From an uncultured Clostridia bacterium (lineage in GTDB: Bacteria > Bacillota > Clostridia > TANB77 > CAG-465), in NCBI GenBank assembly GCA_947625855.1, contig CANQPW010000005.1:1-52702 (forward strand): a stretch of 52,702 nt of DNA. Reading direction: 5' to 3'. The translations under genes and the position numbers were made by a program. Each line of letters starts with the position of its first letter. The first letter of the stretch is position 1. This document shows, one piece after another, positions 1-13,222 of this stretch. The notes beneath the pieces were generated by a model. The model was not told the DNA's origin. It worked only from the letters and a program-made list of their open reading frames with translations, and searched no databases.

Positions 1-67
1 TGACTTGCTAGGTCTTTCTAGGTTTGAACTTGCATCAAACTAGATATTGTACACCGAACTGGCGCAC
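1..67 (-). mobile_element. Possible 5' end of a group II intron, truncated by the left contig edge
   Basis: The minus strand read from 67 downwards is GTGCGCCAGTTCGGTGTACAATATCTAG... This fits the GUGYG intron 5' consensus and resembles, from memory, the Ll.LtrB start GTGCGCCCAGATAGGGTGT. Only 67 nt are visible, with no domain V or RT ORF in the window. Confidence 0.3.
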
Positions 68-165
68 CTCCTATAATTTCTATTATTATACCATTTTCTA
101 ATATTTATTACAATATATTTATAATTTTGATATTTTCCTTTTTTTATAATATTATTTGTAAAATA

Positions 166-194
166 TTGATATAACTTACATAAAATGATATAAT
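166..194 (+). promoter_or_regulatory. Sigma-A type promoter of the HD-domain gene
   Basis: TTGATA (166-171), 17-nt spacer, TATAAT (189-194), with TG at the extended -10 position. Confidence 0.55.
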
Positions 195-213
195 AAAAGT
201 TGTGGAGGATTTT

Positions 214-780
214 ATGATTTTATCAAATAGAAAGTTTAATTATATATATTCTATTAATAATCAAGTAAAAGCCATCGGTTCAGATGTAAACTTACTTGAT
301 GAATATCTTGAATACAACAAGCTAGTATCAGATCTAATAGATAATAAAGTAGTATTAGAAATGATGAATTATATGCAACATGGTACAACAAGTTGTTATC
401 AACATTGTATAAACGTATCATATTATAGTTATAAACTTGCAAAAAAGCTAAATTTAGATGTACGTTCAGTTGCAAGAGCTGCATTACTTCATGACTTATT
501 CTTATACGATTGGCATAAGGTTATGTTTAAAATGCCACTTTTACAAAAACATGGATTTACACATCCGAAAAAAGCATTAGAAAATGCAACTAAATATTTT
601 ACTTTAAATGATAAAGAAAAAGATATAATTTTAAAACATATGTGGCCTTTAACTTTAAAAATTCCAAAATATAAAGAAAGTTATATCGTTATATTAATGG
701 ATAAGTATTGTTGCTTACTTGAAACTTTCTATCCTAAGCTTACAAGATTACCTTTTTTAAATAAAATTTTCTACACATAA
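214..780 (+). CDS. HD-domain phosphohydrolase family protein
   Basis: The ORF contains H...HD metal-binding signature residues (QHGTTSCYQHCINV, ALLHDLFLYDWH). The ATG at 214 follows GGAGGA (204-209). The GTG at 202 in the ORF track sits at the predicted transcription start site (TSS). Confidence 0.8.
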   Translation: MILSNRKFNYIYSINNQVKAIGSDVNLLDEYLEYNKLVSDLIDNKVVLEMMNYMQHGTTSCYQHCINVSYYSYKLAKKLNLDVRSVARAALLHDLFLYDWHKVMFKMPLLQKHGFTHPKKALENATKYFTLNDKEKDIILKHMWPLTLKIPKYKESYIVILMDKYCCLLETFYPKLTRLPFLNKIFYT

Positions 781-797
781 AAATTTTGTCAAAGTTG

Positions 798-826
798 TTG
801 ACAATGAAAATAAAAGATGTTATAAT
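798..826 (+). promoter_or_regulatory. Consensus sigma-A promoter of tRNA-Leu
   Basis: TTGACA (798-803), 17-nt spacer, TATAAT (821-826), about 28 nt upstream of the tRNA. Confidence 0.65.
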
Positions 827-853
827 ATGAATTGCTATAAAGATATAGCATAT

Positions 854-942
854 GCGAGTATGGCGGAATTGGCAGACGCACAGGACTTAAAATCCTGCGG
901 GCTTTAACACCCATACCAGTTCGACTCTGGTTACTCGCACCA
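854..942 (+). tRNA. tRNA-Leu (anticodon UAA), class II with long variable arm, encoded CCA
   Basis: Acceptor GCGAGTA/TACTCGC. Anticodon stem CAGGA/TCCTG with loop CTTAAAA (anticodon TAA). Variable arm CGGGCTTTAACACCCAT. T arm ACCAG-TTCGACT-CTGGT, then discriminator A and CCA. Confidence 0.93.
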
Positions 943-950
943 CAAATAAA

Positions 951-979
951 ATGAGTGAAATTTCTTCACTCATTTTTTT
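951..979. terminator. Rho-independent terminator, shared by tRNA-Leu and the convergent minus-strand operon
   Basis: ATGAGTGAA-ATTTC-TTCACTCAT hairpin followed by TTTTTTT. Confidence 0.7.
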
Positions 980-982
980 GTT

Positions 983-1396
983 TTAAAAATCTGTAAATTT
1001 TATATTATTTTCTCTGAAATATCTTTGATATTCTGCCTTTGTTGCATAACCATTTTCAAAAATAACTGTATAAGAGTTGTCTTCGTAAATCTCAACATGA
1101 AAAGTTTTTTCTGTCCTTGAAAACATATCCCATTTTGAAATTTCTTCAATCACAGCTTTTATCTTTGAAATATCATTTCTATTAAAAGATAACTCAACAT
1201 ACGTTCTTTCTGCATGGATAATAAAGTATACATCATCATACCTTACCATAACACCATTACAAAACTTTGGCTTTGCTATAAGCATAAAACACTGTGCACC
1301 ATTATTTAGCCTTGAAGATAAATAAGATACTACCTCATTATTAGAAAATGTCTGTAAATTAACCATTTTTCCATTCCGCTCAAAGCTGATAGACAT
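983..1396 (-). CDS. Hypothetical protein (137 aa), third gene of the AAA+ operon
   Basis: Long ORF in AT-rich DNA with RBS AAAGGAGGAAAAGACT before the ATG. No family recognised. Confidence 0.7.
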   Translation of the reverse strand: MSISFERNGKMVNLQTFSNNEVVSYLSSRLNNGAQCFMLIAKPKFCNGVMVRYDDVYFIIHAERTYVELSFNRNDISKIKAVIEEISKWDMFSRTEKTFHVEIYEDNSYTVIFENGYATKAEYQRYFRENNIKFTDF

Positions 1397-1428
1397 AGTC
1401 TTTTCCTCCTTTATTTTTACTGTTTAAA

Positions 1429-2322
1429 TCAATCATTTTTTACATTTACAAATCTTTCTAAATTGATATTTTTTAAACATCTTTTTAAATCAGAAATAAT
1501 ATCATCTGAGCCATGAATACCCATTTCTCTTGGAAAGGAAAAAATGATATCAGTATCCTTTAAGCCAAAAAAATCTATTATTTGCTTTCTACTTGCTACT
1601 TCACCATAAGTGTCCGACCAATCAAGCCGTAATGGTGCTACTTCTGTAACTCTAAAACATAGTCTTCTTAAAAATGATGGATGGCATAAAGGAAAATATA
1701 CCTTCTTTAAATTGATATTTTCATTTTCCTCTTTTACATTAAAATATAATAATAATGCTTCATCAAAACCTCTACCAGTTATAAACGCAAGTTTAAATAG
1801 AACTAAGTTTACAGCATATCCCATTTTTTCGAGTAAATCGATAATACTTATGATTATAGCTCCCCTATTATATATTTCACGAGAACTAGTTTCATAAGGA
1901 CAAGAAATATTAACATATATATTGATAATTGAATAATTAGGTACAAAAACTCTCCTTAGCATATTGTTAGGATTCATATGAACATAATCAGGTACTGAAG
2001 GTGCAAAACCAACAATATCTTTTTTTCGTCCAATCACATTTTCTATATCTAAAAATTCCTTATCAATCTCACTTTTTAAATATAAAAATCTATCAAACTT
2101 TTCATTCCAACCATATTCACATAATCTAACAGCTTCATCAAATGAACTAGTTTTACAAAATTCTTGTTTACTTTTTCTACTATCATTACTCGATAATTCA
2201 TCTTTATTAAAAAATATACAATTAATTTCTGCATTTAATATATAATTTATAAACCTGTCTATATTTTCAAAATAATATTCAACTACATGAGTATCTTTTT
2301 TGTTGTACTTCTTTATATTCAT
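1429..2322 (-). CDS. Hypothetical protein (297 aa), putative partner of the AAA+ ATPase; possibly a degenerate vWA-like fold
   Basis: RBS AAGAGGAAAGCTT before the ATG, 11 nt after the upstream stop. A beta-alpha-beta stretch (INIYVNISCPYETSS...IISIIDLLEKMGYAVNLVLF) sits where a MIDAS (metal-ion-dependent adhesion site) strand would be, but lacks DxSxS. Confidence 0.7.
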   Translation of the reverse strand: MNIKKYNKKDTHVVEYYFENIDRFINYILNAEINCIFFNKDELSSNDSRKSKQEFCKTSSFDEAVRLCEYGWNEKFDRFLYLKSEIDKEFLDIENVIGRKKDIVGFAPSVPDYVHMNPNNMLRRVFVPNYSIINIYVNISCPYETSSREIYNRGAIIISIIDLLEKMGYAVNLVLFKLAFITGRGFDEALLLYFNVKEENENINLKKVYFPLCHPSFLRRLCFRVTEVAPLRLDWSDTYGEVASRKQIIDFFGLKDTDIIFSFPREMGIHGSDDIISDLKRCLKNINLERFVNVKND

Positions 2323-2333
2323 AAGCTTTCCTC

Positions 2334-3428
2334 TTATTTTGAACTCATGCTATCTTTTACATCAACTAAAGCTCTATAAAACTCATTATCTTCTTCTGAT
2401 ATATCAATGTCATTTAAAAGTATTTTTAAATCATCAACATTTAATCCTTTTACTATAACGTTTCTAACAATCTTTTCAAGATCTATACCTTTTTTTCTCA
2501 TTTCATAAGCATATTCTATACCTCTCATTGAAAAAATTGCTTTAATACGATTTTTTCTCTGAGATTCCCGTAACTCCCAAAATACTTCTAAAATTTCTTT
2601 ATCAGGATAAAGGACTGCTTCTAAATCTTTATCATAATCAATTTCTTTTATAACATATCTATCAAGTGTTGCACCATCAAGTTTGTTTCTTCCAACATAT
2701 TCAATACTTCTACCATTTCCCCAAGTATTTGCAGTAGCAACAATTCTAAAATCTTTATGAACTTTTTGCTCACCACAAGGGAAACTATATACACCATTTC
2801 TAATAGCATCATTAACAGAAATAAGTGCAGAAGCTAATGAATTATCAATCTCATCTAAAATAAATAATCCGCCTCTTGTAAAAGCTTCATAAAAATCAGT
2901 AGATTGATACCTTCCAGAAGCATCAATAAATCCGATAAGTTTATACTCATCCTGGGGGCTATTACATCTATATACATCAAGATTTAATGCTTCAGCTACT
3001 TGAGTGAGCATAACATTTTTTCCAGTTCCAGCAGGTCCTGTTAAAAGTACAGGAATATTAAGGCTTACACACTCAAGGACATCTTCAAAATCTTTATGGA
3101 AAACGCCCTCAATCTTTTTAACTTCATTATTTCCAGAAATTATCTCAACATGTCTAAAAGGTATAGTAGCTGTATCAATTTTATCTTCGACTTGCTTTAA
3201 TAATTTAGGCATTAACCTTTCAATACTAAGTTTTATTAAATCATCTAATTTACCATTTTCAAAATATTCTTCATTAATTGTTTTATTAATAAAATTTAAA
3301 GTTAATGGTGACATGGAATCACGTAGTTTTTCAATCGTATCTTCCGAACTAACATATTCCTCCACTATTTTTAATAAATCATCCCTTAACTGCTCAACGA
3401 TATAAGCTTCAAGATTATTGCTAGCCAT
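2334..3428 (-). CDS. AAA+ ATPase, AAA_5 (CobS/MoxR-like) class, Walker A with Asn instead of Ser/Thr
   Basis: Walker A LLTGPAGTGKN, Walker B GGLFILDEID, sensor-1 RIVATANT, then GRNKLDGATLDRY (CobS/MoxR-type). RBS AAAAGGAGGAAAATTTT before the ATG. Confidence 0.85.
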   Translation of the reverse strand: MASNNLEAYIVEQLRDDLLKIVEEYVSSEDTIEKLRDSMSPLTLNFINKTINEEYFENGKLDDLIKLSIERLMPKLLKQVEDKIDTATIPFRHVEIISGNNEVKKIEGVFHKDFEDVLECVSLNIPVLLTGPAGTGKNVMLTQVAEALNLDVYRCNSPQDEYKLIGFIDASGRYQSTDFYEAFTRGGLFILDEIDNSLASALISVNDAIRNGVYSFPCGEQKVHKDFRIVATANTWGNGRSIEYVGRNKLDGATLDRYVIKEIDYDKDLEAVLYPDKEILEVFWELRESQRKNRIKAIFSMRGIEYAYEMRKKGIDLEKIVRNVIVKGLNVDDLKILLNDIDISEEDNEFYRALVDVKDSMSSK

Positions 3429-3491
3429 AAAATTTTCCTCCTTTTTATTTACTATACAATTATGTATGGCATAAAAAATAAATGCATAGCA

Positions 3492-3520
3492 ATTTTATCA
3501 CAATAGTACTTTTTTTTCAA
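3492..3520 (-). promoter_or_regulatory. Promoter of the AAA+ operon
   Basis: On the minus strand: TTGAAA, 17-nt spacer, TAAAAT preceded by TG (TGATAAAAT). Confidence 0.5.
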
Positions 3521-3538
3521 TAGTTTTATGTAAAATAC

Positions 3539-3566
3539 TTGACTTTTTTTTCATTTGTGATATAAT
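3539..3566 (+). promoter_or_regulatory. Promoter of the divergent 491-aa ORF
   Basis: TTGACT (3539-3544), 16-nt spacer, TATAAT (3561-3566) preceded by TG. Confidence 0.55.
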
Positions 3567-3649
3567 GCTTATGCATTATGATTTGAGTAACTACATAATT
3601 TTAGTTACGATTATATTTTAATTATATTTTAAAAAAGGAGGCCGGAAAT

Positions 3650-5125
3650 GTGTACAGCAAATTTTCTCGTATTTTAAGATTAAAGCCAATAGGAATACGA
3701 TTTTGGCCATATGGTGATCAAACACTAAAAATATTTAGTGCTCCAAAATTTTGGTCACAACATAAATATTATACTACTACTGGTTATCATTATGAGGTAA
3801 CCCTTATATCAAACGATAGCATTTCAATTAGCTTAGAAAGTACTTGTAGAAAAGGTTGTATTCATTTTAAACCTGCAACTCTTACATTAGATGATTTTTT
3901 AACACAATTAAAAGAAGCTGTAAAAGAAAATTCAAACTATATAACTCTTGCTATTGCGGTCACTTGTTGTTTTTCCTCTTGTGATACGTGTCTTTTGGAA
4001 AACGATAATTGTAAAAAAATGCGTAATAGTGCTTATGAATATCTTTTATCAATTTATTTTAACTATGAAGATATTATAAAAGCTTTAGATTATTATGAAA
4101 ATTTTGAAGAATACGAAATGGCAAAAAATCCATATAACACTTCTTATTCACAGGGTTCTATGATTTCTTCATATACACCAAAAAAAATTCAAAGAAAAAA
4201 GGAGAAAAGAGCTATGAAAAATCAAACCAACTTTTTGGGAATTCAGTGCGGTATGATTGATGATCCCAATGTAGCAGCAACAATGTTAGGCATATGCTTC
4301 AAGAACGAGGCCGGCAACTGGATTAAATTTGATCCCAACACCAAGCAGCGGACAGATATGTCAAATGTCCAGGTAGGGAACCTTGGGCCTCTGTACCTTA
4401 TTCCTTCAAGTAAAGTGGAAGTTGGAACGCCCATTTACTACGAGAACGAGTACTACTATGTAACGGACGCATCAAATCCCAACAAGCTTACCGTTCTTTC
4501 CGTTAAAGACGGCGTCGAGAAAACAGTTTATCCTGCTAAGAACCTCTTAGGCCTTAACTTCTATGCTAAAGTTGTTGCCTTAATTGATGCTGAGCAGCTG
4601 ATGGGTGGCGACAATGATGATCTGCTGGTTGTTATGGCTCTTAGCGGTGGCCTTAACAATGGTGGCGATAACGCCTTCAACCTTAGCTCCGATGGAAACG
4701 GTCTTAGCAACCTTTTCCTTTTATCCGCACTCAGTAATAATAAGGAAAACGGTCTTGGCGGTATGTTATCCGGCATCTTAGGAGATGGAGATAGTTCTTC
4801 TAATAAACTGCTTCCTTTACTCTTACTTTCTGGTGGCATGAACGGTCAGGGTGGAAACGGCTTTGACATGAATACATTGCTTATGTTAAGTATGCTTAAC
4901 AAGAAGTCTAGCGGATCTGGTAGCAACGAGGCAAGTGACAACAACAATAACTTAGTATATGCCTTAGAAGACATGATGGCAGCCAAGAAAGAACCCGAAA
5001 AATCGGCAGATACCCTTTCTAAGGATGATGTGGCAGCAATTGTCAAGGATACACTCAGATCAGAACTTAAGTCCATTGTAAAAGAAGTTATGGCTGAGAC
5101 CTCTGCTGACAGCACCAAAGAGTAA
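3650..5125 (+). CDS. Hypothetical 491-aa protein, compositional chimera: AT-rich Cys-rich N-terminal part plus GC-rich part with L/S/G/N-rich repeats
   Basis: GTG start 7 nt after AAGGAGG. Uninterrupted frame. An internal in-frame ATG at 4214 is preceded by AAGGAGA. GC rises from about 25% to about 50% after about 4240. A GC-rich hairpin terminator follows the stop. Confidence 0.7.
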   Translation: MYSKFSRILRLKPIGIRFWPYGDQTLKIFSAPKFWSQHKYYTTTGYHYEVTLISNDSISISLESTCRKGCIHFKPATLTLDDFLTQLKEAVKENSNYITLAIAVTCCFSSCDTCLLENDNCKKMRNSAYEYLLSIYFNYEDIIKALDYYENFEEYEMAKNPYNTSYSQGSMISSYTPKKIQRKKEKRAMKNQTNFLGIQCGMIDDPNVAATMLGICFKNEAGNWIKFDPNTKQRTDMSNVQVGNLGPLYLIPSSKVEVGTPIYYENEYYYVTDASNPNKLTVLSVKDGVEKTVYPAKNLLGLNFYAKVVALIDAEQLMGGDNDDLLVVMALSGGLNNGGDNAFNLSSDGNGLSNLFLLSALSNNKENGLGGMLSGILGDGDSSSNKLLPLLLLSGGMNGQGGNGFDMNTLLMLSMLNKKSSGSGSNEASDNNNNLVYALEDMMAAKKEPEKSADTLSKDDVAAIVKDTLRSELKSIVKEVMAETSADSTKE

Positions 5126-5156
5126 TACTAACAATAAACAACAATAAACAAATTTT

Positions 5157-5192
5157 GGCTTGGTGCTTTAATTTAGCACCAAGCCTTTCTTT
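5157..5192 (+). terminator. Rho-independent terminator of the 491-aa ORF
   Basis: GGCTTGGTGCT-TTAATTT-AGCACCAAGCC perfect 11-bp stem followed by TTTCTTT. Confidence 0.75.
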
Positions 5193-5203
5193 GGAGGTAT
5201 AAT

Positions 5204-5410
5204 ATGTCAAGTATATCATTTAGGAAACGGATAAAAATAGATGATACTACGACCTTAAACATCAGTAAAAAGGGTTTTTCGATTAGTAAAAAAGTAGGAA
5301 ATACGACTGTAAATTCAAGAGGAACTGTTACTACAAATCTTGGAAACGGTATAATTTTAAGAGATTCATTAAAACCAAAAACAACTAAAAAAAATTCAAA
5401 AAATAAGTAG
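5204..5410 (+). CDS. DUF4236-like small protein (68 aa)
   Basis: GGAGGTATAAT precedes the ATG. The translation FRKRIKI...LNISKKGFSISKKVGNTTVNSRGTVTTNLGNG matches the recalled DUF4236 pattern (RKSxK...LNxSKxGxSxS...G). Confidence 0.7.
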   Translation: MSSISFRKRIKIDDTTTLNISKKGFSISKKVGNTTVNSRGTVTTNLGNGIILRDSLKPKTTKKNSKNK

Positions 5411-5425
5411 AGCAAAACTCTACTT
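5405..5425. terminator. Bidirectional hairpin terminator between convergent genes
   Basis: AAGTAGAG-CAAAA-CTCTACTT with T-rich flanks on both strands. Confidence 0.55.
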
Positions 5426-5431
5426 ATTTAT

Positions 5432-7000
5432 TTACTCATTAAACCCGAGTATTTTTCCTGATTTAAAATTATAATATCCATCTTCTAATTCTATTAAATC
5501 AAGTTCATCATCTCTACCAACATAATCTTTTATGTTATATTCAAATGAAACATTACCATTTTTTGCATTATATATTGTATATTTTTCATCATTTCTAACA
5601 ATTAAATAATTGTCATCATAGTATTCTTTATACGCATTTTCAATATTTGATATTAAGTTTCCTTTTAAATCATATAGTTTAATAATTTTATCATTTGAAT
5701 TTTCAACTATAATATAACTATCAGATATAACATTATCTCCTCTTTGTAAAGGAATTTTTTTATTTTCATTTATAAAAATATAATCATTTGTAGCACTCTC
5801 ATCTTGAATTGTAACTACCAAAGTTTCACCATAATATGTATAATTAGAAACTCCCTCTAATACCAATTTACCTTTCAAATTATATACATCATATTTTCCT
5901 TTTTCTAAACTTTCAGCAACTATATAATCTAATTTATTATTTCCAGGAGCTACAAAAAAATGATTTTCTATTTTATTTATTAAACCTCTCCTGTTATATA
6001 ATTCCAAATTATCAGCATCAGATATTACAAAATATATATTATTATTTGAATCTAGTAATAATTCAATTTCATTTTCAGAAGTAAATATTTTATTATAATT
6101 TGAATCATAAATAGTATACTTATCTTCTCTTTTTCCATCAACTAATGACATTTGAGTTAAAATCATATATTTACCATATTTATTATTTGCTGATACAGAA
6201 GTACAATTTGAAGTATCAATAGTATCTTTAACACTCATATCCTTGTTATATATTACAACTTCATTTTCTTTAATTTGAATATTATAATTAAAAGTTAGGT
6301 TTTCTACATTTTCAAATAATTCTTCTCCACTTGTTAAATCAAAATATCTATTTTTACCATTTTCATTAACATTAATCACAGTATCATAACTATTATCAAA
6401 TTTATCAAAATAATATATATCATTCTCATTTAGCTCATTACTAGCTGTAAATAATATTTTTCCATCTTCATTTATATAACTGTAATCTTCATTTTCTCCA
6501 ACAAATAATATATCAGATGTCTCATCATTGGATAATATTGAAATATATTCATATTCAACAGGTATAACTTCATTTCCACTATAATCTATAACACCATATT
6601 TGTTCTCCTTTTCAACGCTATAATACTTTCCATTTGCTAATTGTGTTATGCTGTTATATACCCCATAATCTATTATAACCTTCTCATTTTTATTAATTAA
6701 TGCATGTTCTAAATAATTTGGATTATCTGTAAGAGCCTTACTAACGCAAGTAGTATCATAATAAAAATCACTCATATCTGAATATCCAGTATATTTTAAA
6801 ACTTTATTATTTCTTGTTATATATGTAAAATCTCCATTTTCACTTTTCACTAATTTTGCATATCCAACTATAACTTCTTCTTCTTTTTCATCATCATTTT
6901 TACTAAATATATTAGTACATATAAATATTGCTACAATTAATACAACTACTATAATGCAAATTAATGCATATTTTATCAAATTATTCTTGTTGTTTTCCAT
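5432..7000 (-). CDS. Membrane-anchored protein with WG-type (KWG-like) beta-repeats
   Basis: N-terminal TM helix (LIKYALICIIVVVLIVAIFI). Repeats of the type NKYGVIDYSGNEVIPVEYEYI. Confidence 0.75.
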   Translation of the reverse strand: MENNKNNLIKYALICIIVVVLIVAIFICTNIFSKNDDEKEEEVIVGYAKLVKSENGDFTYITRNNKVLKYTGYSDMSDFYYDTTCVSKALTDNPNYLEHALINKNEKVIIDYGVYNSITQLANGKYYSVEKENKYGVIDYSGNEVIPVEYEYISILSNDETSDILFVGENEDYSYINEDGKILFTASNELNENDIYYFDKFDNSYDTVINVNENGKNRYFDLTSGEELFENVENLTFNYNIQIKENEVVIYNKDMSVKDTIDTSNCTSVSANNKYGKYMILTQMSLVDGKREDKYTIYDSNYNKIFTSENEIELLLDSNNNIYFVISDADNLELYNRRGLINKIENHFFVAPGNNKLDYIVAESLEKGKYDVYNLKGKLVLEGVSNYTYYGETLVVTIQDESATNDYIFINENKKIPLQRGDNVISDSYIIVENSNDKIIKLYDLKGNLISNIENAYKEYYDDNYLIVRNDEKYTIYNAKNGNVSFEYNIKDYVGRDDELDLIELEDGYYNFKSGKILGFNE

Positions 7001-7058
7001 AGCAAATCCCTCTTTCTCATAATAATATAGTATATTAAATTGCTATTTTTGTCAATAA

Positions 7059-7086
7059 TAGCAGATGAATTTAATTTCATCTGCTA
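7059..7086 (-). terminator. Hairpin downstream of the DUF4352-like gene
   Basis: TAGCAGATGAA-TTTAAT-TTCATCTGCTA, an 11-bp stem. The T tract on the minus strand is weak. Confidence 0.4.
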
Positions 7087-7091
7087 CAAAC

Positions 7092-7844
7092 TTATATATT
7101 TACTTTTATTTTAGCCATATCTGAATATACAATATAACAATTATTATCATTTTTCATTTTTTGGAAACATAATGTTCCAGTTACACTTTCGCCAACTTCT
7201 AATAATTTGCTGTCAAGAGTTGCCTCTTTATATGTATAATCAATCATAGGATCATAATCTTCTCCATATCTATCTACTAATGAGAAGTCATATTTACTTA
7301 TATATGTAGGAGTATCATCAGTATTTTTTATTGTAATTGTTACCATTACAAGCTCATAATCATTATTATATGCTTGTAAATTTTCACTGCCTTTATATCT
7401 TTCTATTTTATCTATTGTTACTGTACTATAATTATCTTTGATTTCCTTTCCTATACTATATTCTTTTAGTCTTGAAATATCATCATCATCGTCATAATCA
7501 TAGTCGTAATCGTAATCATTATCATAGTCATAATCATCATAATAATCATCATAATCATCAAATATTTCATTTCTTATGCCGTTTGTTATAATATTTTTAC
7601 TTACACTTCCTACAAATGCAAAAACAAAAATTAATACTATTGCTAATATCATACTTAATCCAGATGTTACTATACCAACTATTGGCATAGCTTTATTATT
7701 TTTTCCTCTAGATTTCATTGTAGCAAGTGAAACAATACCAAGAATTATTCCTACTATTGCAGGTACATATGCAAACATACCAATAAATGGTATAAAAGAA
7801 ATTACAATTGCAATAATTCCTAAAACTAAAGATGCTACTTCCAT
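7092..7844 (-). CDS. Membrane protein with a D/Y low-complexity linker and a DUF4352-like extracellular domain
   Basis: Two or three N-terminal TM helices, the linker DDYDDYYDDYDYDNDYDYDYDYDDDDD, and a C-terminal beta-rich domain (ELVMVTITIKN...FSLVDRYGEDYDP...GESVTGTLCF). Confidence 0.75.
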   Translation of the reverse strand: MEVASLVLGIIAIVISFIPFIGMFAYVPAIVGIILGIVSLATMKSRGKNNKAMPIVGIVTSGLSMILAIVLIFVFAFVGSVSKNIITNGIRNEIFDDYDDYYDDYDYDNDYDYDYDYDDDDDISRLKEYSIGKEIKDNYSTVTIDKIERYKGSENLQAYNNDYELVMVTITIKNTDDTPTYISKYDFSLVDRYGEDYDPMIDYTYKEATLDSKLLEVGESVTGTLCFQKMKNDNNCYIVYSDMAKIKVNI

Positions 7845-7856
7845 AATCCTTCCTCC

Positions 7857-8771
7857 TTATTTACTTTTTTTATTTTCTTTTTTAAATAATTTATTTTTTA
7901 AATTTTCAAAAGTATACCATAATGAAGATGCTATAAATACAGATGAATATGTACCTATAATAACACCTAAAATCAATGGTAATGAGAATTCTTTTAATAC
8001 TTGTTGGTCATATATAACAGAAAAAACATATACAATAGCTATTGCAACAACAGTAGTAATTGATGTGCATATTGTTCTACCCATTGTTTGACTTATACTA
8101 GTATTAATTGTACCTTTTAAATCAGCACCACTAGATACAAGTTTTTTATTTTCTCTTATTCTATCATATATAACGATAGTATCATTTATAGAATAACCAA
8201 TAATTGTAAGTATTACAGCTACAAAACTTGAATTTATTGGGAATTTTATAAAGCCATATATTGCTACTATAAATAAAGCATCATGTATAAGTGTTAAAAT
8301 TGCAGATATTGCAGCAGTAAAGCCTAATGTTCTAAATCTTACAAAAATGTATAAAAGTACTATAACTATTGCAAGTGATAAAGCAAGTACTGCTGAATTT
8401 AGCAATTCTTTACCATAAGATGGTTGAACATTTCTTACTGATGGTTCATCCATATTTACATATCTTTCTTTTAAAGCACTAATTATTTTATCAGATGTAT
8501 CTTGATCAATAACTTGTGTTGTAATAGATACAGAATTATCTCCACCACTTGTTTTTTGAACTAATACAGAAGACCCTGTTATCTGAGTTACTAAATCAGT
8601 TATTTCATTATTGTCACATTCTTCTTTAAGCTCTGCTCTAATTGTTGTTCCACCTTTAAAATCAATATCAAAGGTAAAGTCAGTAATTAAGCCATAAACA
8701 ATTCCTGAAATAATTACTATAAGTGAAAAAGCCAAAAATACATATCTATATTTTATAATATCCTTAGTCAT
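7857..8771 (-). CDS. secF: Protein translocase subunit SecF
   Basis: Six-TM SecF pattern, overlaps secD by 8 nt. Conserved FDIDFKGGT and IVIYDRIRE motifs. Confidence 0.93.
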   Translation of the reverse strand: MTKDIIKYRYVFLAFSLIVIISGIVYGLITDFTFDIDFKGGTTIRAELKEECDNNEITDLVTQITGSSVLVQKTSGGDNSVSITTQVIDQDTSDKIISALKERYVNMDEPSVRNVQPSYGKELLNSAVLALSLAIVIVLLYIFVRFRTLGFTAAISAILTLIHDALFIVAIYGFIKFPINSSFVAVILTIIGYSINDTIVIYDRIRENKKLVSSGADLKGTINTSISQTMGRTICTSITTVVAIAIVYVFSVIYDQQVLKEFSLPLILGVIIGTYSSVFIASSLWYTFENLKNKLFKKENKKSK

Positions 8772-10068
8772 TTTCTTTTACCTCCTTTTTTACTCCAAAT
8801 AAGAAGGTATGCTTGTCACATAATGGCATAAATTCTTTTAATAAATATTTTGTAAGTACGACTGCTGTAAGTAAACTTAAAAGTACACCTAAAGCAAGAA
8901 CTATACCAAAGCCTTTTACAAAGCCTATTCCCACAATGTAAAGTAATATTGCTACTGTAAAAGTAGTAACATTTCCATCAACTATTGCTGTCATTGCATT
9001 TTTAAAACTTCTTTCAAAAGCTTTTTTATAATTTACATTTTGCTTCAATTCTTCTTTTAATCTTTCATATATTATTACGTTAGCATCAACTGCCATTCCA
9101 ATTGATAATATAAGACCTGCTATACCTGGTAAAGTTAAACTTATATTTGTATTTGAAATAATTAAAATATTTAAAGCTATATATGCAATTAAAGATATAC
9201 TAGCTACTAATCCAGGTACTCTATATACTACAAGCATAATTAGACAAATCAAAATTAATGCTACAATTCCAGCCTTTATACTTATTTCTAAAGCCTGTTG
9301 ACCTATATATGGGTCTATATATTCTTTGTTTATTACTTCTAAACTAAATGGTAAAGCACCAGAATCAATTAACATAGCATATTGTCTTGCTTGTTCTTCT
9401 TTTTCTTTATTGCTCTCTGATCCCATAGTAATTATTGCAGTATTTGAATTAATTTGTTGACTTACTACTGGTGATGTTATAAGAGTATCATCAAGATATA
9501 TAGATATTGTTTTACCAATTAAATTTGCTGTTGCCTCACTAAATTTTTTTGCTCCTTCATCACTAAATGTTAATTCAACATGTGGATTAGCAAATCCTGT
9601 TGAATCTGTTGCAGAGTTACTATATTTTGCTGAAGCAATATCATCACCTGATAAAAGTACATTTGAATCAGGATCTCTAAATTCAATCTTTGCTGTTTTA
9701 TCTAATCCTTCAACTGCTGTTATAGGATCATTTGTAGTATCACTCTTATCCCTTGGTACTTCAACAGTTATTTGATTTGTCGCTAAATCATATCTAACAA
9801 TATAATCAAATATATTTTTAGAATATAATCTGTTTTCAATTACCTCTACTGATTTTTTCAAATCATATTCAGTTATTTCTTTTCCTTCTTCTGCAATTGC
9901 TTGATATGTTATTGTGACACCACCACTAATATCAAGTCCAGTATTAATTTCTTTTGCACTTTTAATAATATTTCTACCTTTTATAGTTAAACCAAATAAT
10001 GCAAAATATGTAATTAATGCTACAATTGCTACATATATTACTATTTTTATAACATTTTTAAATTTCAC
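8764..10068 (-). CDS. secD: Protein translocase subunit SecD
   Basis: GLDISGG, a periplasmic domain, then a C-terminal six-TM bundle (AVDANVIIYERLKEE). GTG start. Confidence 0.93.
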   Translation of the reverse strand: MKFKNVIKIVIYVAIVALITYFALFGLTIKGRNIIKSAKEINTGLDISGGVTITYQAIAEEGKEITEYDLKKSVEVIENRLYSKNIFDYIVRYDLATNQITVEVPRDKSDTTNDPITAVEGLDKTAKIEFRDPDSNVLLSGDDIASAKYSNSATDSTGFANPHVELTFSDEGAKKFSEATANLIGKTISIYLDDTLITSPVVSQQINSNTAIITMGSESNKEKEEQARQYAMLIDSGALPFSLEVINKEYIDPYIGQQALEISIKAGIVALILICLIMLVVYRVPGLVASISLIAYIALNILIISNTNISLTLPGIAGLILSIGMAVDANVIIYERLKEELKQNVNYKKAFERSFKNAMTAIVDGNVTTFTVAILLYIVGIGFVKGFGIVLALGVLLSLLTAVVLTKYLLKEFMPLCDKHTFLFGVKKEVKEND

Positions 10069-10094
10069 TTAAAATCCCTCCTGTAACATCTGTA

Positions 10095-10123
10095 ATTATA
10101 CTATTTTTATCTAATTTAGTCAA
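10095..10123 (-). promoter_or_regulatory. Promoter of secDF
   Basis: On the minus strand: TTGACT, 17-nt spacer, TATAAT. Confidence 0.55.
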
Positions 10124-10124
10124 G

Positions 10125-10153
10125 AAAAAAATAAAAGCTACAAAATGTAGCTT
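10125..10153 (-). terminator. Rho-independent terminator after the PH-domain gene
   Basis: AAGCTACA-AAA-TGTAGCTT followed on the minus strand by TTATTTTTTT. Confidence 0.65.
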
Positions 10154-10154
10154 A

Positions 10155-10886
10155 TTATTCATTAATATCTTTCAAACTTTCGTTAAATTTCTTTTCATCT
10201 TCTTCTGAAAAATTAACTATTTCGCTAATTTTTTCTTTATCAGACAAATCTTCTTCTTCACTTTTTTCTTCATTTTCTACATTTTGTTCTTCTTTATTTT
10301 CTTCTACATTCTTTTTTGCTATATCATCTTTTTTATAATTTTTTGAATAATCTAAAATTTCATGGATTTTTTCATAACATTCTTGTGGATTTTTTATACT
10401 ATATATTACTAAACCATTATTTCTATTTTCAGCATTAGTATAAATTACTATAATACCATAACCTAGAATTCTATCTGTTATTGTTCTTCTAATTTCAACC
10501 TCTCTTATATTTGAGTATTGTATAGTTTTAGTATGTTGATTTAAAAAAGAATCTTCATAAATCATATAATCATCATAAAAAGTATAACTTAAATATTTAT
10601 ACTGTAATACTTGAAAAGTAATATGTATAATTAATTTTATAGATAATACAATAATTAATGCAATAAATATTATATTTAATAATTGTGATACATTAACAAC
10701 ATCTGTTATACTATTAAAATCTATTACATTATTAAAAATTAATAAAACAATATATAATATTATGGTACCTAAAAGCATAAAAGTTGAATTTTTAATTTTT
10801 CTACCTGTTGGCATTATCATTTCATATATAAAATTAAATTTAGGTTTTATTATATATTTGGGTTCATTTTTTTTAACTTCTTCCAT
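10155..10886 (-). CDS. Membrane protein with a bacterial PH (YdbS/YdbT-like, bPH_2) domain and an E/K-rich tail
   Basis: Two TM helices, then YSNIREVEIRRTITDRILGYGIIVIYT typical of bPH_2. Confidence 0.7.
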   Translation of the reverse strand: MEEVKKNEPKYIIKPKFNFIYEMIMPTGRKIKNSTFMLLGTIILYIVLLIFNNVIDFNSITDVVNVSQLLNIIFIALIIVLSIKLIIHITFQVLQYKYLSYTFYDDYMIYEDSFLNQHTKTIQYSNIREVEIRRTITDRILGYGIIVIYTNAENRNNGLVIYSIKNPQECYEKIHEILDYSKNYKKDDIAKKNVEENKEEQNVENEEKSEEEDLSDKEKISEIVNFSEEDEKKFNESLKDINE

Positions 10887-10896
10887 ATTCTTCTCC

Positions 10897-11604
10897 TTAT
10901 TTTACAATAGTTCCTATCTTCTCACCTAAAGTTGCTCTCTTTATTGATTCTTCTTCATTTAAAGCAAATACTATTATAGGTAAGTTATTTTCCATACATA
11001 AAGTTATAGCAGTAGTATCCATTACTCCTAATTTTTCAGATATTGACTGCATATATGTTACTTCATCATATTTTTTTGCATCTTTATACTTTTTTGGATC
11101 TTTATTATACACACCATCAACATTTTTGGCAAGTAAAATTACTTCTGCATCCATTTCTACTGCTCTTAATGCTGCAGCAGAATCAGTAGTAAAATATGGA
11201 TTTCCAGTTCCACAAGCAAATATAACTACTCTTCCTTTTTCTAAATGTCTTATTGCTTTTCTTCTAATATATAGTTCGGCAATTTGTCTCATTTCAATAG
11301 CACTCATAACTCTTGTAGGAATATTTTTAGTTTCTATCATTTCTTGAAGTGCTAATGCATTTAACATTGTAGCAAGCATTCCCATATAATCTGCTGTTGT
11401 TCTTTGCATATATTCTGCTCCATTTTTACCTCTCCAGAAATTTCCTGCACCTATAACAATTCCAATTTCTACTCCATCTTTTGCAAGCTCTACAATTTGA
11501 TTTACAACTTTTTCTAATTTTTCTTTATCTATTCCTTTTCCATCTTTTCCACCTATTGCTTCACCACTTAATTTTACAAGTATTCTTTTATATTTATATT
11601 TCAT
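10897..11604 (-). CDS. pyrH: UMP kinase
   Basis: [11 protein letters not shown]... and the [15 protein letters not shown] motifs. The ATG at 11604 lies 9 nt after AAGAGG; the ORF-track start at 11628 is less likely. Confidence 0.95.
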
Positions 11605-11668
11605 ACGCATTAACCTCTTAGTATTCATTTTATAATATAACCTTTATATTTTCAATAGTTTGCATAAA

Positions 11669-11709
11669 ATAAAAAAATAAAGTATGCTCAAATTACTTAA
11701 ACATACTTT
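11669..11709 (-). terminator. Terminator after tsf
   Basis: AAAGTATG...CATACTTT stem (15-nt loop) followed on the minus strand by a long T run. Confidence 0.45.
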
Positions 11710-11718
11710 ACTTTATAA

Positions 11719-12366
11719 TTAGTTGTTCATTTGTTTCATTACTTCTTCTGCGAAGTTTTCTTCTTTTTTCTCTATTCCTTCGCCTCTTTCAAATCTAACA
11801 AATCTTCTTATTACTATATTTTCACCAATTTTTGCTATTAATTCAACTAAAAGTTCTCCAACAGTTTTATCTGGATCTTTTACAAATGGTTGATCTAACA
11901 AGCAAATTTCTTCGTAAAATTTATTTAATCTTCCTTCAACTATTTTTTCTACGATTGCTTCTGGTTTTCCTTCTTCTAATGCTTGTGCTTTTAATATTTC
12001 TTTTTCTTCTTCAACAACAGATGCTGGAACTTCTTCACGTCTTACATATTTTGGATTTGCTGCAACTATATGCATAGCTACATCTTTAACAAATTTTTTG
12101 AAATCTTCGTTTTTAGATACAAAATCTGTTTCTGAATTTACTTCAACTAAAGCACCATACTTTCCACCATGTATATATGCTTCAACTAATCCTTCAGAAG
12201 CAATTCTGTCAGCTTTTTTAGCTGCTTTTGCAATACCTTTTTTCTTTAAAAGTTCTACTGCTTTTTCCATATCGCCATCAGTTTCTACTAATATTTTTTT
12301 GCAGTCCATTACACCTGCACCTGTCATTTCTCTTAATTCTTTAACTTGTTCAGCTGTTATAGCCAT
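11719..12366 (-). CDS. tsf: Elongation factor Ts (short form)
   Basis: [27 protein letters not shown]-like N-terminus. The ATG at 12366 follows AGGAGG. The ORF-track start at 12402 would overlap rpsB. Confidence 0.95.
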
Positions 12367-12385
12367 TACAAAGCACCTCCTATAA

Positions 12386-13222
12386 TTAATTATTTTCTTC
12401 AACTTGTTCAGTTTTTTCTTTTTTGTTATGAGTAGGTTTCTTGTTATTTTGTCTTGGTTTTCTTTCTATTTTGTCTACTCCTTCTTTTTGTACTAATTCT
12501 TCCATTGTTACAGTTTCTTCATCATCTGCTTCAGTAAGATTTCCTTCTTTAGCTTCTATTACTGCATCAGCTATTTTAGAAGCAATCAAACTTACAGATT
12601 TTACTGCATCATCATTACCAGGAATTACATAATCTACATCATCTGGATTACAGTTAGAATCGATTAAACCAATTGTTGGAATATCAAGTTTTCTAGCTTC
12701 TTTTGTGCAGATATATTCTTTCTTTGAATCTGCTAAAAAGATAAGGGATGGAAGTTTTTCCATATCCTTTATACCACCTAAATTAGTATTTAAGATATCC
12801 ATTTCTTTTCTTAAATTAATTACTTCTTTTTTAGGTAATACATCAAAAGTTCCGTCTTGTTCCATTTTTTCTAAATTAACAAGTCTTGCAATTCTTTTCT
12901 TAATAGTTGCAAAGTTAGTTAAAGTTCCACCTAACCATCTACTATTAATATAATACATTCCACATCTTTCAGCTTCTTGTTTTATAGTTTCTTGAATTTG
13001 TTTCTTAGTTCCTACAAAAAGAACTAATCCACCATTTGCTACAACTCTTTTTGTAAGATTGTAAGCTTCTTGAACTTTTTTTGAAGTTTTTTGCAAGTCT
13101 AAAATATAAATTCCATTTCTTGCAGTAAATATGTATGGAGCCATTCTTGGGTCCCATCTTTTAGTTTGGTGTCCAAAATGTACACCGGCTTCTAGTAATG
13201 ATTTCATTGGTATAATTGCCAT
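12386..13222 (-). CDS. rpsB: 30S ribosomal protein S2 with an E/K-rich C-terminal extension
   Basis: [22 protein letters not shown]... is a canonical S2 N-terminus. Confidence 0.97.

Follow-up and report, generated by a model that had tools for sequence, protein, structure and literature searches.

A GKN-type AAA+ ATPase and its putative von Willebrand A-like partner, DUF7192, in gut Clostridia and in phages

Contig CANQPW010000005.1 of an uncultured Clostridia bacterium, analysed here over a stretch of 52,702 nt (the window; locus coordinates are counted on its forward strand), carries on its minus strand a gene for an AAA+ ATPase followed at once by a gene for a 297-amino-acid (aa) protein of the family DUF7192, and it is this pair that concerns us. 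The pair is a functionally uncharacterised, divergent variant of the MoxR/CobS-vWA theme (vWA, von Willebrand factor A domain) that is widespread in phages and that, less expectedly, is fixed in chromosomes of gut Bacillota. An initial annotation of this DNA had described the two genes and a 137-aa open reading frame (ORF) as three co-directional minus-strand ORFs, and the ORF coordinates bear this out, with gaps of 11 nt between the ATPase and 297-aa genes and 32 nt between the 297-aa and 137-aa genes. The GGAGG-type ribosome-binding site that it gave to each of them is present for two of the three, the 297-aa gene having AGAGG (AAGAGGAAAG). The ATPase gene is divided from a divergent gene, F491, by a 221-nt intergenic region with promoter-like sites in both directions (plus strand, TTGACT-16-TATAAT; minus strand, TTGAAA-17-TAAAAT; each with an upstream TG), all of them consensus matches only, and at the far end of the operon 40 nt lie between tRNA-Leu(taa) and the stop codon at 983 (Table 1).

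Table 1. Features of the locus, in window coordinates.
Feature	Position	Strand	Remarks
AAA+ ATPase gene	2334..3428	-	364 aa; Pfam AAA_5; PHROG 249
Walker A P-loop GKN	3015..3038	-	Asn replaces the Mg-coordinating Ser/Thr
DUF7192 gene	1429..2322	-	297 aa; PF23822; PHROG 1909
137-aa ORF	983..1396	-	no family
F491 gene	3650..5125	+	491 aa; divergent from the pair; conserved beside it in Clostridia metagenome-assembled genomes (MAGs)
DUF4236 gene	5204..5410	+	68 aa; conserved downstream of F491
tRNA-Leu(taa)	854..942	+	convergent with the operon; syntenic landmark
Hairpin in the operon end/tRNA-Leu gap	948..976		13 bp; both strands fit a terminator pattern
GC-rich hairpin in the F491/DUF4236 gap	5157..5185		11 pairs; matches a terminator pattern
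Divergent promoter-like sites, intergenic region	3492..3566		consensus matches only

The ATPase scored 45.4 bits against Pfam AAA_5 (cut-off 22; aa 126-257) and matched PHROG 249 ("porphyrin biosynthesis") at E 1.4e-51. All the motifs earlier quoted for it were found, namely Walker A GPAGTGKN (aa 131-138; the DNA string ggaactggaaaaaatgtt lies at 3012..3029), Walker B LFILDEID (aa 188-195), VATANT (aa 230-235) and LDGATLDRY (aa 250-258). The Walker B residues D192-E193, the sensor-1 residue N234 and the putative arginine finger R257 align with D141-E142, N186 and R210 of CobS, whose motif roles we took from the CobSTN preprint, and these residues are conserved among the relatives of the ATPase. 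The nearest solved relatives are CbbQ (5c3c, E 1.6e-4) and CobS (9ujv, E 1e-3), with alignments that run from Walker A through the helix-2 insert region, Walker B and sensor 1 to the arginine-finger region; together with the AAA_5 score, this supports the earlier assignment to the CobS/MoxR class. The family is large, with 7,900 representatives of 50%-identity clusters at E≤1e-3, of which 2,023 reach E≤1e-30. ATPases from gut Bacilli (~580 aa; loci L023, L026, L036 and others) have a conserved N-terminal extension of ~230 aa without a Pfam match; the idea that this extension is a fused F491 domain was rejected, as comparison showed the two to be unrelated.

The Walker A motif departs from the canonical GxxxxGK[S/T], as the residue after the P-loop lysine (K+1) is asparagine. 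Among the 150 best 50%-identity cluster representatives, this position is Asn in 124, Ser in 18, Thr in 4 and Gly in 4, and GKN is found in 9 of 10 aligned relatives of the ATPase, including that of Staphylococcus phage S25-3 (Kayvirus). The canonical form is found in distant phage relatives, with GKT in Listeria phage AG20, mycobacteriophage GuuelaD and the CobS proteins of cyanophage and pelagiphage, and GKS in the ATPase of a crAss-like phage. As judged from these alignments, GKN is therefore a hallmark of the ATPase clade and no lesion of the window copy. Asparagine also stands at the same position in torsinA and in E. coli DnaC, both slow, partner-dependent AAA+ proteins. A large natural family has Asn at a site where some mechanistic models demand Ser or Thr.

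The 297-aa protein, for which the initial annotation had recognised no family, does belong to one: it matched Pfam DUF7192 (PF23822) with 97.8 bits (cut-off 27; E 9e-28; aa 6-285) and PHROG 1909 at E 3e-29, and a database search returned 34 relatives. Invariant or near-invariant residues include G105, P118, N152, K197, a C-H-P-S-F-L-R-R helix and a Y-G dipeptide. We found no literature on DUF7192. An AlphaFold2 model built with 26 sequences had a mean predicted local distance difference test score (pLDDT) of 84.7 and a predicted template modelling score (pTM) of 0.82. Its N-terminal part consists of a beta-hairpin and a helix, then tandem helices at aa 61-70 and 76-87; there follows a segment, aa 88-131, that is conserved yet modelled with low confidence, and immediately after it come beta1 (132-138), alpha1 (147-166), a long beta2-beta3 hairpin (170-197) and alpha2 and alpha3 (205-228). 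In the model, the order of elements from residue 132 onwards, beta1-alpha1-beta2-beta3-alpha2-alpha3, would thus be that of a vWA domain, the vWA fold being defined as a six-stranded sheet of order 321456 with flanking helices.

Structural searches with the model point the same way. Against the PDB, Foldseek placed the NorD vWA chains of NorQ-NorD complexes at the top (E 1.4e-3, probability 0.87), followed by vWF-A1 and the vWA domain of Ku. Against BFVD, the first 12 matches were DUF7192 proteins themselves (from Lactobacillus, Mycobacterium, Gordonia and uncultured phages), after which phage proteins of the vWA and CobT-like kinds followed (E 2e-5 to 1e-2); over the vWA domains of NorD, vWF-A1, Ku and the phage CobT-like proteins, the probabilities reached 0.87-1.0. 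What DUF7192 does not have is the MIDAS motif (metal ion-dependent adhesion site), DxSxS...T...D. The position of the MIDAS aspartate, after beta1 (N138 in the window), is Asn in 21 of 26 sequences and Asp in one, position +2 from it is Ala, Ser or Thr and position +4 is Pro, Ser or Leu, the window protein having N138-x-S140. The suggestion in the initial annotation of a degenerate vWA without DxSxS thus draws its support from fold (Foldseek and element order) and gene context, not from sequence, and the best available reading of the model is that the 297-aa protein would be a degenerate, MIDAS-less vWA domain.

The two genes are tightly linked. ATPase and DUF7192 genes adjoin in 34 of 35 informative non-redundant loci, L030 being the single exception, and in most loci they overlap or are spaced by 0-15 nt. 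Carriers among phages are Staphylococcus Kayvirus (S25-3), Enterococcus vB_CECAV_04, Clostridium CS266P3, Listeria AG20 (P100-like), mycobacteriophage GuuelaD and a crAss-like phage, together with two phage-like metagenome contigs and two IMG/VR contigs, the latter being the two loci returned by a scan with a narrow alignment and a subfamily-specific search pattern. To call the pair a candidate for an undescribed system, as had been proposed, goes too far, since it is already catalogued (PHROG 249 with PHROG 1909; Pfam DUF7192) and present in hundreds of sequenced phages, many virulent and temperate ones among its carriers. The Kayvirus transcriptome papers do not mention it by name. T4-like cyanophage and pelagiphage are without DUF7192, and there cobS adjoins a gene for a CobT-like M48C plus vWA "peptidase" of 741-784 aa. 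In the crAss-like phage cr114_1 (L048, 3659-4582), the gene after the ATPase, labelled "transcriptional regulator", is a match to the DUF7192 profile (E 3.6e-12); read with code 11 it contains four in-frame stops, consistent with stop-codon recoding.

Among GTDB species genomes, all carriers of the pair are uncultured gut Bacillota. About 19 MAGs of Bacilli/"Tenericutes" have it at a different site in each genome, with genes for GlmS, SMC, a UvrD-type helicase and a histidine phosphatase among its neighbours. One of the gut Bacilli MAGs (L033) has two tandem ATPase-DUF7192 pairs (5259-7885 and 9349-12693), the second of them, made up of an ATPase of 765 aa and a partner of 349 aa, being highly divergent.

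The PHROG 249 label raises the question of whether the pair might be a CobS/CobT cobaltochelatase of cobalamin ("porphyrin") biosynthesis, as phage annotations have it. CobS is indeed among the nearest solved structures of the ATPase, and an auxiliary metabolic role has been ascribed to the viral cobST gene pair (PMC8651126). Against this, the ATPase scored 18 bits with the NCBIfam CobS equivalog TIGR01650, for which the cut-off is 558.55 (the GvpN equivalog TIGR02640 likewise failed, at 24.6 bits with a cut-off of 266.8), and the partner has neither the M48C N-terminal domain of CobT nor a MIDAS. The earlier remark that no cobalamin, gas-vesicle, nitric oxide reductase (NOR) or RuBisCO genes lie nearby holds good, with no cobN or other cob gene among the ORFs within 8 kb of the module. 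Nor are hosts of the carrier phages, such as Staphylococcus, known to produce B12. We therefore regard a cobaltochelatase as very improbable indeed.

In Clostridia, the pair is part of a larger unit. The genes for the ATPase, DUF7192, F491 and DUF4236 together span 1429..5410, and this four-gene unit is present in six Clostridia loci, in three genomic contexts: the SecDF-linked one seen in the window and two other housekeeping settings. F491 aligns from residue 1 with proteins of 480-509 aa in L004, L006, L007 and L009 at 31-46% identity, and the DUF4236 proteins of the module loci have 62-107 aa. F491 has no Pfam or PHROG match; an alpha/beta domain makes up its N-terminus (~aa 1-160), the central domain (~aa 190-315) is beta-rich and possibly SH3-like, and Gly, Asn and Leu abound in its tail. 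Its model was poor (pLDDT 48), and the Foldseek matches to eIF5A and SH3-like barrels, all at E≥0.05, are a hint at most. Distant relatives of F491 that are without the N-terminal 160 aa occur in phage-like rumen contigs that lack the pair, so that only the pair-linked subfamily has the N-terminal domain. DUF7192 is tandemly duplicated in L006 (5307-7715 and 9088-10891) and in L007 (7093-8897), and the F491 family is duplicated in L006 too, which suggests that partner and candidate client diversify together. A literature search on DUF4236 returned nothing relevant. We consider F491 and DUF4236 the best candidates for a client or co-factor of the pair, in this lineage only. Between the gene for a WG-repeat protein and that for DUF4236, L004 (5649-6875) and L009 (2441-3661) have a gene for a GH25-LysM lysozyme of 406-408 aa; the corresponding position in the window (5410..5432) is merely 21 nt long. 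Downstream, L004 has TnpV and resolvase fragments.

These neighbours bear on a second explanation, that the locus is a decaying prophage or mobile-element remnant beside tRNA-Leu, in which the pair, F491 and DUF4236 would all be phage genes (an early-gene or virion-assembly chaperone set, for example) with no host function. The abundance of the pair in phages, the matches of DUF4236 to several PHROGs, the distant F491 relatives in phage-like contigs, the position of the module near a tRNA with a variable cargo slot, the lysozyme gene beside the module in related genomes and the TnpV and resolvase fragments of L004 would all fit such an origin. However, none of the four ORFs is broken, and across species they align over their whole length at 31-53% identity; the module keeps its SecDF-linked position in several species and recurs in the two other housekeeping contexts; the ORF scan found no structural gene, nor any integrase among the ORFs of 1..8000; no direct repeat of the tRNA-Leu 3' end (att-type) occurs in 700..8000; and GlmS, SMC and UvrD-type genes surround the pair in gut Bacilli. 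Homologues are thus not confined to prophages as a morphogenesis module, a possibility that had been raised at the outset, and we think it rather unlikely that the locus is a remnant of this kind. Since uncultured gut Bacillota carry the pair stably in their chromosomes, its role is not confined to viruses.

The 137-aa ORF is a different matter. It is probably co-transcribed with the pair here, and the earlier statement that it belongs to no recognised family agrees with the Pfam and PHROG scans, which found neither a family nor a phage homologue for it. Ten relatives at ~60% identity exist at other sites; in L015 (8001-9625) and L016 (220-1844), homologues (~59%) stand beside an IS3-family transposase and a Mob_Pre fragment, with no ATPase close by. 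In no other locus does the 137-aa gene lie downstream of the pair, where other genomes have a protein of 350 aa, an ABC transporter or another copy of DUF7192, and in L020 the same tRNA-Leu is found 4.2 kb downstream of DUF7192. The gene therefore occupies a variable slot by tRNA-Leu as unrelated, lineage-specific cargo, and as cargo it is probably mobile. The trio that the initial annotation described as an operon is accordingly not the conserved unit, the conserved neighbours of the pair being F491 and DUF4236, whose genes fall beyond the stretch (983-3428) covered by that annotation. That the 137-aa protein might be a decayed second copy of DUF7192 was also considered and rejected, the two being unrelated on comparison. 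A 35-nt stretch in the leaders of the 137-aa gene (1387..1421) and the ATPase gene (3419..3453), covering GGAGG and the start codon, is 80% identical between the two.

Such variable accessory genes downstream of the pair would also suit an anti-phage or conflict system of the vWA-MoxR type, in which ATPase and adaptor sense infection and F491 or the 137-aa protein is the effector. A role of this kind has been put forward for vWA-MoxR gene sets on comparative grounds (PMC7159879), and, speculatively, the short repeated hydrophobic segments of F491 might act on membranes. Nevertheless, the idea fared poorly here. PADLOC gave no convincing match for the four proteins scanned (the DUF4236 protein was left out), the hits being two weak partial matches of the ATPase (E 0.0026 and 0.045), both to models of the RtcR type; no domain of the nuclease, protease, TIR or pore-former kind came up; the neighbours are housekeeping and not defence genes; strictly lytic phages carry the same pair; and the ATPase has no match to PF20030 (bpMoxR) in the Pfam scan. 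A conflict system thus appears improbable.

With the families, the conserved motifs, the similarity of fold and the linkage of the genes established, we propose that 3428..1429 encodes a two-component AAA+ machine of the MoxR/CobS class, in which the ATPase would work with a dedicated, MIDAS-less, vWA-like adaptor as a remodelling chaperone or switch like NorQD and CobST; we put the probability of this reading at roughly 0.6. In NorQD, a finger of NorD's vWA domain reaches into the AAA+ hexamer's pore, motion driven by ATP remodels the client, and the NorD MIDAS binds the client and not the ATPase (PMC13036017). In CobST, two tandem helices are followed by a flexible shaft and then directly by vWA beta1; the shaft cannot be seen in the apo complex and enters the ring upon nucleotide binding (CobSTN preprint). 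DUF7192 resembles CobT in its order of two helices, a conserved segment of low pLDDT and beta1, from which we infer a ring-plus-plug machine; that the ATPase forms a ring, that the adaptor enters its pore, that the two act as a chaperone or switch and that they have a client would all follow by analogy with these systems. The ATPase, with its Walker B Asp-Glu, sensor-1 Asn and arginine finger intact, would probably form a hexameric ring, and its GKN motor would probably be slow, partner-dependent and switch-like, as in torsinA and DnaC. DUF7192 may be seated on the concave face of the ring with a flexible, conserved element reaching into the central pore, the candidate for this element being aa 88-131, which, like the CobT shaft, lies between two tandem helices and beta1. 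ATP turnover would then be passed through the adaptor to a bound client protein and, because the MIDAS is missing, client contact would do without the metal bridge of the NorD/CbbO type.

Several observations weigh against this reading. Foldseek TM-scores of the DUF7192 model to vWA domains were just 0.2-0.3, with marginal E-values, and the 297-aa protein had no VWA Pfam match at E≤1. A search of PDB sequences with the DUF7192 profile came back empty even at E≤10, and hhalign comparison with the CobT-like protein of cyanophage P-HM1 reached a probability of 0.2, that with the CobT-like "peptidase" of pelagiphage HTVC008M being likewise non-significant; the best P-HM1 segment does place aa 128-180 on the DWSGS-helix-strand (the MIDAS strand) in this non-significant match. 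The GKN motif could mean very low ATPase activity or none, and the secondary-structure order and pLDDT are all that single out aa 88-131 as a pore element. Finally, the link to F491 is limited to a subset of Clostridia: phages and Bacilli have the pair without F491, and distant F491 relatives exist without the pair. A bolder version of our proposal, which we offer tentatively and hold to be doubtful, is that DUF7192 and the GKN ATPases may form an unrecognised, MIDAS-independent AAA+/vWA branch of lytic phages and gut Bacillota. In Clostridia, this branch might have been domesticated with a phage-derived, SH3-like, low-complexity F491 and DUF4236 into a four-gene system acting on a non-metal client, for example in F491 polymer assembly or disassembly at the envelope, or as an infection-responsive switch.

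These results have consequences for annotation. In phages, hundreds of PHROG 249 genes have been given the label "porphyrin biosynthesis", and our analysis indicates that a large clade of them are no cobaltochelatases, genes of therapeutic Kayvirus and P100-like phages included, but apparent partners of the MIDAS-less, vWA-like DUF7192. For DUF7192 itself there is now a structural hypothesis, that of a CobT_C/NorD-like plug for an AAA+ ring, and its stable chromosomal presence with the ATPase in uncultured gut Bacillota extends the role of the pair beyond viruses.

Elsewhere in the window, 7092..7844 encodes a 250-aa membrane protein of the DUF4190/DUF4352 type with an Asp/Tyr-rich tract that derives from a degenerate 12-nt tandem repeat (7479..7559). 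GC skew is negative in nearly all 2-kb blocks and nearly all long ORFs lie on the minus strand, the exception being ~37.8-39.1 kb, where a block of ORFs lies on the plus strand and the skew turns positive.

Several known systems can be set beside the pair. TorsinA and E. coli DnaC also have Asn for the Mg-coordinating Ser/Thr after the P-loop lysine, but they belong to AAA+ clades unrelated to the window ATPase, and torsinA has no Walker B Glu, which the window ATPase keeps (D192-E193). The MoxR-vWA virion-assembly chaperones of Acidianus two-tailed virus and group 2.2 jumbo phages (PMC7824862) likewise have a viral MoxR ATPase and a vWA co-chaperone side by side; however, their partners have a recognisable vWA, with or without a peptidase, and the Kayvirus pair lies outside the 36-66 kb region of clustered late promoters.

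With CobS-CobT, the likeness lies in CobS being among the closest solved ATPases, in phage CobT-like vWA proteins ranking directly behind the DUF7192 family itself as fold matches, and in the two helices, flexible segment and beta1 of the DUF7192 model, which would mirror the alpha0'-alpha0-shaft-vWA order of CobT_C; in cyanophage and pelagiphage, moreover, the CobT-like gene adjoins cobS as DUF7192 adjoins the window ATPase. On the other hand, the window ATPase is far under the CobS equivalog cut-off, the pair is without M48C, MIDAS and CobN, and profile-to-sequence comparison of DUF7192 with CobT-like proteins was non-significant. NorQ-NorD (PDB 9qh6; PMC13036017) resembles the pair in that an AAA_5 ATPase gene adjoins the gene for a dedicated alpha/beta adaptor and in that no PDB structure matches the DUF7192 model better than the NorD vWA, and by analogy an adaptor that plugs the ring pore would be expected here too. 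Nonetheless, DUF7192 is half the size of NorD, without its N-terminal domain and without the DxSxS-T-D MIDAS that NorD needs for its client (N138-x-S/A140 stands in its place), and the window has no NOR client and an ATPase with GKN where NorQ has GKS/T.

The "AAA family ATPase + hypothetical protein" pairs of Kayvirus, P100-like phages and mycobacteriophage have PHROG 249 and PHROG 1909 in the same gene order. The two genes of Staphylococcus phage S25-3 are again 11 nt apart and its ATPase has GKN; between the Kayvirus and window pairs, the ATPases share 39% and the partners 32% identity. The Listeria and mycobacteriophage pairs differ in having GKT where the window has GKN, and what sets the window pair apart from all these phage pairs is that it is chromosomal and linked to F491 and DUF4236.

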